From positions 1-5,907 of IMG/VR virus record IMGVR_UViG_3300045988_053242: 5,907 nucleotides of DNA; one strand, 5' to 3'. Position numbers and translations under genes: made by a program. Shown here in pieces: positions 2,530 through 5,907 of the stretch. Within the stretch, counting starts at the first letter, position 1; every line of letters begins with the position of its first letter. Source of the DNA: a virus. The notes under the pieces are model-generated. The model had not been told where the DNA came from and searched no databases. It saw only the letters and a list, made by a program, of their open reading frames with translations.

Positions 2530-2564
2530 ACCGGCACAAGATAGACAAGGAAGCTTGTGCCGGT
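2530..2564 (+). promoter_or_regulatory. 11-bp perfect stem-loop immediately upstream of the Rep start; the loop carries an SD-like aaggaag
   Basis: accggcacaag (2530-2540) is the reverse complement of cttgtgccggt (2554-2564); 13-nt loop atagacaaggaag (2541-2553). The alternative GTG start at 2557 lies in the 3' arm, and the ATG at 2572 is 8 nt past the stem. Confidence 0.8.
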
Positions 2565-2571
2565 AACAAAA

Positions 2572-3561
2572 ATGCCATGTACAAAACCATTAGTATTTCA
2601 GATGGACACGAAAAAGCCGAAACTGTGGGGAAGTCTGGAAAACCTAACAAAGCAAGGACTGCAAACGGACATCATGGACGGAGTCAAAAAAGGAAAATTC
2701 GCATTGTTACCATGCGGTAAATGCGAATATTGCCGAAAACAGATAGCGGACCAATGGGCAACAAGAATAGAGCTAGAAGCCAAAGAGTGGGACGATGTGA
2801 TTTTTCTAACACTGACATATGATGATGAACATATACCATACGGCGAAATTATCAAAGGATACAAAAGCATTCAAAGTCAGACAGTAAGCAAACGAGACGT
2901 GCAGCTATTTCTAAAACGGCTACGGAAAGCGTACAAGAAGCCAATAAAGTATTTCCTAGCGGCTGAATATGGTGACAGAACAAAAAGGCCACACTACCAT
3001 GCAATAGTATTTGGACTAAAGCCACCAGATGCACAATGGTACAAAAACCAAAAGGGCAACAGCTATTTTAAAAGCGAGTGGTTACAAAAAATCTGGGGCA
3101 AAGGCATGATAGACTTTTCGCCAGCACAACCGGGAAGCTTTGCATACGTGGCGCAGTACGTCAACAAAAAAGCCATAGGCACAGAAGAGAGCGTGAAATA
3201 CTGGATGCAAGGCAGAGAACCAGAGTTTAGAATCATGTCAAAAGGTATCGGAGAAAAGTACCTAAAAGAACACAAAGATGAAATCTTGAAAACAGATAAC
3301 ATCATATGCGCGGGAGGCCGCGAGAAAAGGCCTCCGCGCTATTTTGATAAGATTCTAGATAAAGATACCAGCCAAGACACAGAAAGCTATTTTAAGGCAC
3401 ATTCTGACGAGCTGAGAGAGGTTAGAGCCAAACGCAGACGCAATGCAATACAAAGTTTGGTCAATCTCGAACAGAGCACGAGCGTGGATTATAAAACCTA
3501 TCTAGACATTCAGAAAGAAAAGGACAAGCTAAGGCAAAAATGGCGTGAGCCGAAAGAATGA
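2572..3561 (+). CDS. VP4: Replication initiation protein VP4 (HUH rolling-circle endonuclease, phiX174 gpA-like)
   Basis: Motif 1 is FLTLTY (2803-2820). Motif 2 (HUH) is HYHAIVF (2992-3012). Motif 3, with two tyrosines, is YVAQYVNK (3145-3168) and resembles the phiX174 gpA active site. There is also an N-terminal CGKCEYC cysteine cluster. I chose ATG 2572 because MPCTKPL fits the M-x-C-x-x-P N-terminus common in gokushovirus VP4. The ORF-track start GTG 2557 is the alternative and has AAGGA 5 nt upstream. TGA stop at 3559-3561. Confidence 0.93.
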   Translation: MPCTKPLVFQMDTKKPKLWGSLENLTKQGLQTDIMDGVKKGKFALLPCGKCEYCRKQIADQWATRIELEAKEWDDVIFLTLTYDDEHIPYGEIIKGYKSIQSQTVSKRDVQLFLKRLRKAYKKPIKYFLAAEYGDRTKRPHYHAIVFGLKPPDAQWYKNQKGNSYFKSEWLQKIWGKGMIDFSPAQPGSFAYVAQYVNKKAIGTEESVKYWMQGREPEFRIMSKGIGEKYLKEHKDEILKTDNIICAGGREKRPPRYFDKILDKDTSQDTESYFKAHSDELREVRAKRRRNAIQSLVNLEQSTSVDYKTYLDIQKEKDKLRQKWREPKE

Positions 3562-3785
3562 CGCGCACAGCGCTTACAATGAATGGATTAGCCGAGCTCC
3601 GCATACGCTCCGCACGGCAAAGCGCTAAAGCGCATTCAAAACAAAGGAGCAAAACCGGGTTACAAAAGAAAGTTACAATTTTATTACAAAACAGGAAAAT
3701 CATTGAAAAAGCTATTGACAAGTGGTATAATAAGGTAAAGAGAAGAAAGGAAAGTGCAAACCATGAAAAAAATCTACATGAGTGA
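3558..3785 (+). CDS. Doubtful 75-aa highly basic ORF (hypothetical)
   Basis: Its ATG overlaps the VP4 stop (ATGA at 3558-3561), which would allow translational coupling, and the product is rich in K/R. However, its 3' half is overlaid by a near-consensus promoter and by the RBS and start of orf72. I recognise no family motif, and off-frame stops are rare in this T-poor strand. Confidence 0.25.
   Translation: MTRTALTMNGLAELRIRSARQSAKAHSKQRSKTGLQKKVTILLQNRKIIEKAIDKWYNKVKRRKESANHEKNLHE
3703..3731 (+). promoter_or_regulatory. Near-consensus sigma70-type promoter with extended -10
   Basis: -35 TTGAAA (3703-3708), a 17-nt spacer, then TGg TATAAT (TG at 3723-3724, -10 at 3726-3731). It lies about 30 nt upstream of the orf72 RBS aaagga (3746-3751) and ATG 3763. 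Confidence 0.65.
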
Positions 3786-3981
3786 GCAAAATTACATAGA
3801 ACTTAAATTTTTTGGATACATAATGGGAAAAAAATACAATTACGAAAAATTATTTAAAAAAGGAGAAGAAATTATTTGCAGAAAGTACGCATTCGAACTA
3901 GGAGATGAAACAAACAAGGACGGGTTATACAAAGTAGAAAAAAGATTCGTAGAAGATGTAATCATAACAAAGAGAGGTTGA
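3763..3981 (+). CDS. Hypothetical 72-aa protein (orf72), Lys/Glu/Tyr-rich, no predicted TM segment
   Basis: ATG 3763 has aaagga 11 nt upstream. The ORF-track GTG at 3754 sits only 2 nt from that motif. The ORF ends at TGA 3979-3981, 4 nt before the peptidase ATG. It is very AT-rich: hand counts give 14/60 and 16/60 G+C for lines 3781-3840 and 3841-3900. I recognise no homology. Confidence 0.6.
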   Translation: MKKIYMSEQNYIELKFFGYIMGKKYNYEKLFKKGEEIICRKYAFELGDETNKDGLYKVEKRFVEDVIITKRG

Positions 3982-3985
3982 CAAC

Positions 3986-4378
3986 ATGGAAATAAAAGCA
4001 TATTTAGCAGAAACGCAAGGAGACGAACAAATTACAGACCACTTCAAAGTAAAGGAATTTGCATGCAAAGACAAAACACCAATCGTATTCGTTGACGATT
4101 ATTTAGCAGTCATTCTAGAGATTGCAAGAAAAAAAATCAATAAGCCGATTGTAATCACAAGCGGATACCGCACAGTAAGCCACAACCAAAAAGTAGGTGG
4201 AGCAAAATACAGCTACCATACAAGAGGCATGGCAGCAGACATCAGAGCGAACGGAATGACACCAAAGGAACTTGCAAAAGTGCTAAACAGTATCGTGCCA
4301 AACAACAGCGGCATCATCGTATATGACAATTGGGTACATTTCGACACACGAAATGAAAAATACAGAAAGGGGGTGTAA
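3986..4378 (+). CDS. Zinc D,D- or L,D-peptidase of the M15 family (Peptidase_M15A/M15_3-like, endolysin-type cell-wall hydrolase)
   Basis: The 130-aa product has the family signature SGYR....N...GG...S.H..G.A.D and a C-terminal WVHFD. The inferred zinc ligands are H78 (4217-4219), D85 (4238-4240) and H118 (4337-4339), giving the H-x6-D...H arrangement. The N-terminal F.V.EF.C block is also typical. RBS gagagg lies 8 nt upstream. There is no signal peptide or TM segment. Confidence 0.88.
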   Translation: MEIKAYLAETQGDEQITDHFKVKEFACKDKTPIVFVDDYLAVILEIARKKINKPIVITSGYRTVSHNQKVGGAKYSYHTRGMAADIRANGMTPKELAKVLNSIVPNNSGIIVYDNWVHFDTRNEKYRKGV

Positions 4379-4380
4379 AA

Positions 4381-4497
4381 ATGGCACACAGAACCGGAGC
4401 GGGTCGAGGCGACCAAAAACGCTTTACCCAAACAGCAAAGCGAGTAAAAAATATCAACGTCCGGCCGAAAGTCTCGCGAGGCGGCATCCGACTGTAA
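4381..4497 (+). CDS. Small basic DNA-binding/packaging protein (gokushovirus ORF8-like, functional analogue of phiX174 J), 38 aa
   Basis: It is absent from the ORF track because it is under 60 aa. My translation is MAHRTGAGRGDQKRFTQTAKRVKNINVRPKVSRGGIRL. The arginine-rich N-terminus, the F-T-x-T-A-x-R-x-K-x-I-N core and the C-terminal RGGIRL match the pattern I recall for Microviridae ORF8-type proteins. A strong RBS agggggtg (4367-4374) lies 6 nt upstream. TAA stop at 4495-4497. Confidence 0.75.
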   Translation: MAHRTGAGRGDQKRFTQTAKRVKNINVRPKVSRGGIRL

Positions 4498-4528
4498 GCA
4501 ATACAAACAAAAGAAAGGAAGTGACTTA

Positions 4529-4645
4529 ATGGCATTAATCAAAGTCAAGGACGTTAAAGAAGCAATTGCGCTAATGATGAACATTCTTGAAAAGCTCGAC
4601 GAAATCTATCACGCACTGAAGGACGCAAACAAAGAAAAAGAGTAA
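4529..4645 (+). CDS. Hypothetical 38-aa protein (predicted helical, charged C-terminus)
   Basis: ATG 4529 has aaaggaag (4513-4520) 8 nt upstream. The translation is MALIKVKDVKEAIALMMNILEKLDEIYHALKDANKEKE. The TAA at 4643-4645 abuts the VP5 RBS, so the ORF fills the gap between two genes exactly. I recognise no family. Confidence 0.4.
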   Translation: MALIKVKDVKEAIALMMNILEKLDEIYHALKDANKEKE

Positions 4646-4656
4646 AGGAGAAAAAC

Positions 4657-4911
4657 ATGAAACTGAAATTCTATTCGTTCCACGATGCACTGACCAACGG
4701 CTATTCTCAGCCGTTCTTGCAGAACAACCGAGCACAGGCAGTCAGAACGGCACGATGGAAGGCCAACGAGAGCAAGCCCAGTGAAATTGAAGACATTTCA
4801 CTTGTAGAACTGGGAGAATTCGACACGGAAAACGGCTACATGAGCGAAGCAATGCCTGAACACATCGCACGGCTCATCGACCTGAAGGAGACGGCCAATG
4901 TTAAATCCTGA
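4657..4911 (+). CDS. VP5: VP5-like non-structural protein (gokushovirus ORF5 family, proposed gpC-like packaging/replication role)
   Basis: The product is 84 aa, the same size class as Chlamydia-phage ORF5. The pattern F.SF.D......Y..PF.......A.R..........(ED)..L.ELG.FD...G matches my recollection of the family. RBS aaggag (4645-4650) lies 6 nt upstream. Its position between Rep and scaffold is typical. Confidence 0.6.
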   Translation: MKLKFYSFHDALTNGYSQPFLQNNRAQAVRTARWKANESKPSEIEDISLVELGEFDTENGYMSEAMPEHIARLIDLKETANVKS

Positions 4912-5323
4912 AGTGATGGTGCGTTTCTACGGTATGAAGACAGAGAGAGCGATAAACAATCCGGGCAGCGAAACAGCACCAACGTGGAAAGCAGTTAAGC
5001 GACCGAACGGCACAACCGACTACATCGAGCAACCGGACGAGAACACATACGAAAAAATCCAGAAGGCGGGCGAGGGCTACGACCTTGCAAGCGCAATCGC
5101 ACGACTGGAAGCCGGAGATACCAGCATCAAAGCAAAAAGCATGGTATACACCGAAGGCACTGACCTTGAAAATCTGCCGAAGGACATCATGACAATGCAC
5201 GAAAAAGCAGAAGCTGCAGCCGAAACAATGAAACAGCTGAAACAGGTGCAGCAGACCGAACAGCCGAAGCCGGAAGAGGAAGAAAAAAAGGAAGAGGTGA
5301 AGAAAGACGAACAGAAACAGTGA
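4898..5323 (+). CDS. VP3: Internal scaffolding protein VP3-like
   Basis: It lies directly upstream of VP1. The pattern ..PGS......NG.....E.DENTYEKIQ....YDL...I.RLEAGD.S......Y...TD....P.D resembles gut gokushovirus VP3 as I remember it. ATG 4898 has gaaggag (4884-4890) 7 nt upstream and overlaps the VP5 end by 14 nt. Alternative in-frame ATGs at 4916 and 4934 lack an SD. TGA stop at 5321-5323. Confidence 0.6.
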   Translation: MLNPEVMVRFYGMKTERAINNPGSETAPTWKAVKRPNGTTDYIEQPDENTYEKIQKAGEGYDLASAIARLEAGDTSIKAKSMVYTEGTDLENLPKDIMTMHEKAEAAAETMKQLKQVQQTEQPKPEEEEKKEEVKKDEQKQ

Positions 5324-5348: not shown

Positions 5349-5907
5349 ATGGAACGACCACGAAGCAAATTCGACCGCAGTCACCAGCTCCTAACGACCA
5401 TAAACGAAGGCGAGCTTGTACCCATCTATTGCGATGAAGTACTTCCTGGTGATACAGCACGTGTCCAACTGAACGGGCTTATCCGTATGAGTACGCCCAT
5501 CTATCCAGTAATGGATAACGCGTACATGGACACATATTTCTTCTTTGTTCCGTGCCGTCTGCTGTGGGAACACTGGGAGAACATGTTCGGCGAGAATGAC
5601 ACCGACTATTGGGAAGAAAAGACCGAATACAGCACACCGACTTGCAAAATCGGAGGAACGAGCGGACTGGTTAACGGCAGCATCGGGGACTATTTCGGAC
5701 TGCCGACCGGAATCAAAAATCAAATCAAAGTGAACGCACTGCCGGCAAGAGCGTATGCCATGATATACAACGAGTGGTTTCGTGACGAAAACATTGAAGC
5801 ACCGTTAATGCTAGGCTATAAGAAATCGGATGACGCAGGAACAGAACCAAATCCAGGAAACGCAAACGAAGATTACTACTTAAACAAACCGAGCCTGACG
5901 ACAAACA
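5349..5907 (+). CDS. VP1: Major capsid protein VP1, N-terminal part; runs off the window end and continues at nt 1 of the circle (5809-5907 duplicates 1-99)
   Basis: It is absent from the ORF track because there is no stop in the window. My translation from ATG 5349 is MERPRSKFDRSHQLLTTINEGELVPIYCDEVLPGDTARVQLNGLIRMSTPIYPVMDNAYMDTYFFFVPCRLLWEHWENMFGEN... These are classic Microviridae capsid N-terminal blocks (S.FD.SH, VP....EVLPGDT, R...P...P..DN...D.YFFFVP.RL.W). An in-frame upstream stop lies at 5298-5300. Confidence 0.95.
   Translation, partial: MERPRSKFDRSHQLLTTINEGELVPIYCDEVLPGDTARVQLNGLIRMSTPIYPVMDNAYMDTYFFFVPCRLLWEHWENMFGENDTDYWEEKTEYSTPTCKIGGTSGLVNGSIGDYFGLPTGIKNQIKVNALPARAYAMIYNEWFRDENIEAPLMLGYKKSDDAGTEPNPGNANEDYYLNKPSLTTN
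5809..5907. repeat. Terminal redundancy: copy 2 of the 99-nt exact direct repeat (identical to 1-99)
   Basis: See copy 1; identity was checked base by base. Confidence 0.95.

Follow-up and report, generated by a model that had tools for sequence, protein, structure and literature searches.

Lysis genes in microviruses and their relatives

Although gokushoviruses rank among the most abundant human-gut phages, to our knowledge none of them has a demonstrated lysis mechanism. In phiX174, lysis depends on a single gene encoding protein E, an inhibitor of MraY which acts without a holin-endolysin pair. Protein E itself does not degrade the wall enzymatically; it is a membrane protein encoded by an overprinted gene.

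Genes of another kind, the M15_3 peptidases, were described by Roux et al. 2012 (PLoS One, PMC3394797) in five human-gut Gokushovirinae and six Alpavirinae. That study showed their horizontal acquisition and proposed an endolysin role and Gram-positive hosts. It also noted holins beside the prophage homologues, an affinity of the peptidases to Faecalibacterium sequences, and unknown ORFs adjoining 5 of the 11 peptidases, with one such ORF lying on the complementary strand. Gokushovirus M15 peptidases were mentioned again, and the endolysin proposal restated, by Kirchberger and Ochman 2020 (PMC7062461). The peptidase was subsequently treated as a recombining accessory lysis gene, as shown for another genome pair (Kirchberger et al. 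2022, PMC9239249). Cultured roseophage microviruses also carry M15 peptidases.

The only accessory wall hydrolase of a microvirus verified by zymogram is Gp7 of Ebor (Tainavirinae), which degrades peptidoglycan in such assays and has been detected in trace amounts in virions (PMC11195240). Ebor belongs to another microvirus lineage, infects Rhodobacter and encodes a 45-aa predicted membrane protein besides Gp7 (PMC11195240). Gp7 is related by HHpred to PDB entry 6SSC, which is absent among the matches of the peptidase considered here. In the microviral wall-hydrolase literature compared, the absence of a holin is not directly addressed.

The stretch of DNA analysed here (the window, 5907 nt) carries an M15_3 peptidase gene which agrees with those of the gut gokushoviruses (Roux 2012; KX513868, KX513876) in Pfam family, size, subfamily, habitat and position after VP4. 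No essential difference was found, and the window is a further member of this group, with the peptidase cassette on a KX513876-like backbone. Since Roux 2012 and the later papers had described such enzymes, and both GenBank relatives are annotated ‘peptidase M15’, the finding of the peptidase as such was already known.

Outside the microviruses, the family includes the stand-alone M15 endolysin of the Faecalibacterium siphophage FP_Toutatis (AUV56799). It is likewise a single-domain protein (137 aa against 130 aa) and shares 43% identity over the full length. Two membrane-protein genes follow it in Toutatis: one product is holin-like and 131 aa long, the other has 105 aa and a transmembrane segment at its C-terminus. 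Together, the endolysin and the two membrane genes are a classical lysis cassette, whereas the microvirus has neither membrane gene.

Genome organization

The genome contains the complete gokushovirus gene set, as identified by Pfam and PHROG searches, and the coding strand is the + strand for all genes. The main features are as follows.

Spanning the window ends, + strand: VP1, capsid protein (Phage_F, E 2e-89)
1199-2056, + strand: VP2, pilot protein (Pfam/PHROG)
Between VP2 and VP4, about 500 nt: intergenic region
2557-3561, + strand: VP4, Rep (Pfam/PHROG)
3558-3785, + strand: small ORF (ORF list)
4657-4911, + strand: VP5 (Phage_ORF5)
4898-5323, + strand: VP3, scaffold protein (Chlamy_scaf)

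An exact 99-nt direct terminal repeat, of the kind usually left when circular genomes are assembled, is present (positions 1-99 equal 5809-5907), and so the genome is circular with a true length of 5808 nt. The window is a complete circular genome of a gokushovirus (Gokushovirinae, Microviridae). Naive wrap-around of the window duplicates 33 aa within VP1. Among GenBank records, Human gut gokushovirus KX513876 is the nearest, aligning at 88.9% nucleotide identity across 76% of the window. Among the ORFs scanned against Pfam and PHROG, there was no integrase, repressor or other lysogeny gene.

The + strand has a strong base skew (A 37%, T 17%). As a result, hydrophobic codons are depleted on the + strand, and the - strand gains long hydrophobic ORFs, such as 1189-1515 and 4213-4584, which should not be counted as genes.

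The peptidase gene and its product

The gene lies after VP4 and is preceded by a ribosome-binding site.

3970-3977, + strand: Shine-Dalgarno-like AAGAGAGG, 8 nt before the peptidase ATG (read from the sequence)
3986-4378, + strand: gene for an M15_3 (LAS-fold) zinc peptidoglycan peptidase, putative endolysin (Pfam, PHROG, AlphaFold2, Foldseek)

The ORF runs from the ATG at 3986 to the TAA ending at 4378. Its 130-aa product matches Pfam PF08291 (Peptidase_M15_3) over profile positions 2-108 of 108 with E 4.5e-22 and 78.7 bits, against a gathering cut-off of 23.2 bits, and PHROG 894 ‘endolysin’ with E 1e-40. The characteristic motifs are SGYR (residues 59-62), H78-x6-D85 and WVHFD (116-120), the last containing H118 and D120. 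The H/D block aligns with the Zn-ligand block of the Streptomyces DD-peptidase 1LBU. Across 115 microviral homologues, H78, D85, H118, D120, S59, G60 and R62 are each conserved in at least 98%, and dN/dS relative to the window is approximately 0.12-0.25, which indicates that the gene is under purifying selection. Given this conservation of the ligands and these dN/dS values, the gene product is predicted to be a working enzyme.

The AlphaFold2 model, built from 45 homologues, has a mean pLDDT of 91.9. Foldseek matched it in the PDB to 1LBU (E 9.9e-5), VanY, VanXYc, Ply500, ChiX, LysECD7 and hedgehog N-domains, so that the predicted fold is the LAS or hedgehog/DD-peptidase fold. TM-scores against models of viral M15 proteins are 0.91-0.95. 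The fold and the H-x6-D...H zinc site are shared with 1LBU (the Zn D-Ala-D-Ala carboxypeptidase of Streptomyces albus G), VanY, Ply500 and ChiX, and identity to these is only 13-25%. PDB sequence searches returned no solved PF08291 structure nearer than 1LBU, and for this reason the bond cleaved by the enzyme cannot be deduced.

The protein starts with MEIKAYLAETQGDEQITD, an acidic sequence. Its first 30 residues are hydrophilic, and in the AlphaFold2 model residues 3-7 make up one of the strands of the fold, so the peptidase has neither a signal peptide nor a SAR segment. The best Kyte-Doolittle window within the protein is internal and reaches 1.08. An N-terminal extension is impossible because of an in-frame stop at 3965-3967, upstream of the ATG.

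The sequence-only reading had called the genome a microvirus carrying a bona fide zinc peptidase fold (H78-x6-D85...H118, SGYR, WVHFD) with a non-signal, non-SAR N-terminus. This description is borne out in full: the matches to Phage_F, Rep, pilot, Phage_ORF5 and Chlamy_scaf settle the classification, the Pfam and PHROG matches, the 1LBU alignment and the AlphaFold2 model agree on the enzyme, and hydropathy, the upstream stop and the strand at residues 3-7 agree on the N-terminus.

Search for a holin or other export partner

Membrane segments were sought with 19-residue Kyte-Doolittle windows at the usual threshold of 1.6, which is a hydropathy scan and not a trained predictor. No + strand ORF of 20 aa or more in the window contains a stretch of transmembrane grade. 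The maximum, 1.40, is below 1.6 and belongs to the VP2 N-terminus; a stop-free scan of all three + frames of the window gave nothing above this value either.

1208-1264, + strand: hydrophobic segment at the VP2 N-terminus, LLSFMPYLMKGLSMLTGII, top Kyte-Doolittle window (1.40)

A total of 140 related microvirus genomes were fetched, and 115 M15-bearing genomes were used for the same scan. No conserved transmembrane ORF was found across these 115 gokushovirus genomes. The sole recurrent segment of transmembrane grade was the VP2 N-terminus, which was repeatedly at or near the top hydropathy score and reached up to 1.73. Other transmembrane-like ORFs were confined to three sporadic singletons (genomes L066, L109 and L122 of this set). 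As a positive control, the scan finds the two membrane proteins directly after the Toutatis M15 endolysin, with scores of 2.59 and 1.71-1.91.

An overprinted hydrophobic frame within VP1 (5519-5599, approximately 5522, VHGHIFLLCSVPSAVGTLG) was considered and rejected, as it consists of 26 codons with no start codon before the hydrophobic part. Its recurrence in relatives is explained solely by the conservation of VP1 in them. With this sole candidate rejected, none of the three + frames of the window holds an overprinted transmembrane ORF of the phiX174 E type. The antisense ORF over the peptidase (4213-4584, - strand) was rejected as well, being fully open in only 3 of 115 genomes. Such an ORF is expected because the + strand is T-poor (17% T).

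The search of the window and the related M15-bearing genomes thus yielded no holin, signal peptide, SAR domain, spanin or conserved partner, and so no evident route by which a cytoplasmic peptidase would reach its substrate. The sequence-only reading had found no convincing transmembrane helix in the + strand ORFs and had named a small overlapping transmembrane ORF as the finding that would count against it. Its observation stands for the window and now extends to 115 related genomes; the overlapping ORF was sought and none was found, since 5519-5599 has no start and the antisense ORFs are unconserved. Its framing of the whole as an open discovery stands in part. The lack of a recognisable holin is confirmed by the hydropathy scan and extends to the 115 genomes, but the M15_3 endolysin proposal dates from 2012. 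The missing holin is a real gap, yet it is not a new observation specific to the window sequence.

A canonical holin-endolysin pair could underlie these results if the holin had escaped the scan, whether through very small size or weak hydrophobicity, through a position on the complementary strand, or as one of the small ORFs that vary between genomes. The Ebor membrane protein encoded alongside the hydrolase (PMC11195240), the unknown ORFs of Roux 2012, including the complementary-strand one (PMC3394797), and the sporadic ORFs of L066, L109 and L122 are all in keeping with this. It is nevertheless quite unlikely. No + frame of the window reaches 1.6, the VP2 N-terminus is the only recurrent match in 115 genomes, the antisense frames are open in so few of them, and the scan does pick up the Toutatis holin. 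The genes around the peptidase bear on the same question.

3763-3981 (GTG alternative start at 3754), + strand: orf72, soluble small protein directly upstream of the peptidase (28 homologue clusters)
4381-4497, + strand: orf38a, basic 38-aa protein ending in ...RGGIRL (phrog_10695; pI 12)
4529-4645, + strand: orf38b, conserved 38-aa helical protein (MALI.IKDVK.AI..M..ILEKLDEIYHAL)

The position of orf72 would suit a missed holin, as a gap of 5 nt separates its homologues from the M15 gene downstream in all five genomes fetched. The 28 homologue clusters, all from contigs of at most 6.1 kb, define a microvirus-restricted family of 72-aa proteins. However, orf72 is soluble, with no transmembrane segment by Kyte-Doolittle and no Pfam, PHROG or NCBIfam match. 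Its AlphaFold2 model (beta-alpha-beta3, pLDDT 81) has no significant fold match in the PDB. The gene is present in only 6 of the 120 M15-bearing genomes examined. For these reasons (solubility, no family or fold match, few genomes), orf72 was rejected as a holin or a protein of known function.

More generally, the region upstream of the peptidase (3657-3983) is hypervariable, and the gap between VP4 and M15 ranges from 152 to 1294 nt among relatives. An upstream ORF is absent before M15 in 44 of 120 M15-bearing genomes, and in the remainder it falls into at least 12 unrelated groups, as obtained from clustering restricted to the VP4-to-M15 interval. Both this inconstancy and the shortness of some gaps, only about 150-250 nt, argue against a holin hidden there.

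Downstream, orf38a starts 2 nt past the M15 stop and is conserved in all relatives. It is probably the gokushovirus ORF8/J-like DNA-binding protein. The next gene, orf38b, is among the most conserved proteins of the lineage and has no family assignment. Its core ILEKLDEIYHAL is invariant, and the protein is 71-97% identical over backbones with VP1 only 37-45% identical. In 91 of 94 genomes it follows M15 within approximately 520 nt, and in the remaining 3 it directly precedes M15. All 78 new genomes retrieved via orf38b alone carry M15. As a dedicated peptidase partner it is ruled out by its presence in 15 of 21 M15-less relatives (described below), and for the same reason it is regarded as a backbone gene.

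Host

AAGGAG-type ribosome-binding sites speak against a Bacteroidetes host, and AAGGAG-like sites precede most genes of the window. The only match in the genome collection searched is a complete gokushovirus contig of 5739 nt (CAVKUS010000079.1, here L023), with VP1 83% identical, in the MAG bin of ‘Bacteroides sp. CAG:545’. This placement probably reflects mistaken binning, not the host, because the genes of the lineage are Shine-Dalgarno-rich. The closest non-microviral homologues of the peptidase (43% identity) are stand-alone endolysins of the Faecalibacterium phages Toutatis, Lelie and Aster. The hosts of gut gokushoviruses have been predicted to be Clostridiales (Shah et al. 2023, PMC10159846; see also PMC3394797). 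The host is likely a monoderm of Clostridiales, in which case the cytoplasmic membrane would be the only barrier between the enzyme and the wall.

A mobile cassette and a sister clade without it

The peptidase gene coincides with an island of high identity in otherwise divergent genomes.

3983-4387, + strand: exchanged peptidase cassette (blastn)

In blastn comparisons, approximately 3983-4387 is 83-93% identical at the nucleotide level to genomes whose VP1 is only 37-45% and VP4 mostly 36-41% identical. The peptidase of KX513876, the GenBank relative nearest in backbone, is only 58% identical to that of the window, and the peptidase of KX513868 shows 92% protein identity. On these sequence comparisons, the peptidase gene is a cleanly bounded mobile cassette of approximately 400 nt, exchanged among very different gokushovirus backbones. 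Approximately 985 protein clusters (at 90% identity) in the database match the peptidase.

A sister clade of 21 genomes (IMG/VR contigs, L124-L144), with VP1 53-56% identical to that of the window, has no M15 gene. The core gene order is otherwise unchanged and the structural gene set is the same. The peptidase is therefore accessory. In L125, the one genome of this clade with small ORFs scanned, no wall hydrolase was found, so the gokushovirus backbone presumably has an exit route of its own.

These distributions also bear on a role outside lysis. The peptidase might be associated with the virion or act early, opening the thick wall locally for delivery of the DNA, for which no holin would be needed. 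The absence of an export device fits such delivery from outside, as does a host that is probably of Gram-positive type. In tailed phages, PF08291-type domains also occur as parts of large virion proteins, including Gp5 OB-fold hub fusions and proteins of 800-1190 aa. The microviral peptidase, however, is fused to neither VP1 nor VP2, and its nearest relatives are stand-alone endolysins adjoining holin-like genes. The cassette moves among capsids with VP1 37-45% identical, with no apparent co-adaptation, and the M15-less relatives retain the same structural gene set. Furthermore, the T=1 capsid has little spare room. The traces of Gp7 in Ebor virions (PMC11195240) notwithstanding, a function in entry is unlikely, and less likely than one in lysis.

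Expression signals and the proposed mechanism of lysis

Two candidate signals frame the genes that are probably transcribed with the peptidase.

3703-3731, + strand: sigma-70-like promoter candidate TTGAAA-17-TGgTATAAT with an extended -10 TG (11/12 consensus matches)
1171-1190, + strand: terminator-like hairpin after VP1, 8-bp stem with 7 G-C pairs, then ATTTTTG

The promoter candidate is the top-scoring promoter-like site of the genome on either strand and lies approximately 250 nt upstream of the peptidase. Of 111 relatives, 35 contain the element TGnTATAAT exactly once, and 34 genomes have a copy within the VP4-to-M15 interval. The hairpin is the only + strand terminator-like site reported by the scan and is a probable end of the transcription unit starting at the promoter candidate. 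By consensus match, the two sites bracket orf72, M15, the small ORFs, VP5, VP3 and VP1, which suggests that the peptidase is probably co-transcribed with the virion genes. Since it would lie downstream of the extended -10 promoter and be followed by the DNA-binding, scaffold and capsid genes, the enzyme would be expected to accumulate with the virion proteins.

The reading favoured here, with a probability of about 0.62, is that the peptidase is an accessory endolysin which originated in tailed phages of Clostridiales and gains access to the wall without a canonical holin, aided by the phage backbone. The gut gokushoviruses would have gained the gene horizontally from these tailed phages and would now swap the cassette of approximately 400 nt among themselves. 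The product would be a single-domain LAS-type zinc peptidoglycan peptidase, made in the cytoplasm, which cleaves wall peptide stems or cross-links as infection ends. From the evidence above we infer both the role in lysis and an access to the wall that is independent of a canonical holin. Such access may be provided by a membrane lesion or a block of wall synthesis arising from the conserved backbone, for example through excess VP2 or an amurin-like activity. The backbone function would damage the membrane or wall first, and the peptidase would then complete the breakdown of the wall. This backbone step is proposed because the sister clade evidently exits its host without the peptidase. The VP2 N-terminus as the route of membrane damage is speculative, because a hydrophobic N-terminus is general among pilot proteins.

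An enzyme for which no route to the wall was found might also serve a purpose other than lysis: it might remodel the wall of carrier-state cells, bring about superinfection exclusion or affect the host in some other way. Some microviruses are known to form carrier states (PMC9753089). Such a role is very improbable here, as the ORFs scanned include no integrase, repressor or other lysogeny gene and the homologues of the peptidase act as endolysins. In addition, a cytoplasmic enzyme would meet the same problem of access in any role directed at the wall.

An accessory endolysin would have consequences beyond this genome. The peptidase is the only recognisable lysis-type gene of gokushoviruses; it could serve as a marker of host type (Clostridiales) and, as a small ready-made enzyme, is a candidate for testing against gut Firmicutes. 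The additions made here to what was known are modest: the absence of a holin is consistent over more than 100 genomes, the mobile cassette is bounded, and a sister clade lacks the peptidase, which points to an exit function encoded by the backbone. A wider proposal can be put forward tentatively, namely that a very large clade of gut gokushoviruses, represented here by at least 115 genomes, frees a signal-less cytoplasmic endolysin without any holin, by an undescribed route (for instance VP2 or a small backbone protein), in Clostridiales hosts of Gram-positive type. If true, this would be a new lysis strategy of ssDNA phages and would tie the peptidase to the way in which gokushoviruses generally leave their hosts.

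Other non-coding elements

An Rfam scan of the window gave no significant match. Directly after the VP4 stop, a stretch of approximately 95 nt (3561-3656) retains 85-93% identity among gokushoviruses that are otherwise very divergent. It was found in 72 of 140 genomes and in 0 of the 21 M15-less ones. Its conservation at the nucleotide level across reading frames suggests a cis element. Folding of the conserved element (3550-3670) as ssDNA gave a z-score of -1.26, which is not notable.

The intergenic region between VP2 and VP4 contains, at 2312-2477, seven iteron-like + strand copies of TTTTCAACA or CTTTCAACA. At no more than one mismatch, there are 10 matches to these in the window against 2.2 expected, and 0 of 200 shuffles reach 10. 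The stretch 2313-2511 matches 114 of 140 related genomes and 0 of the 21 M15-less ones. This iteron-like region could be an origin or a Rep-binding region. The same intergenic region also includes G-run/C-run hairpins at 2140-2205, AGGGGGGGCGCAGATTGTTTGCGCCCCCCCT followed by CGCGCCCCCCTACGCGGGGGGCTG, the first of which was called on the - strand by the terminator scan.
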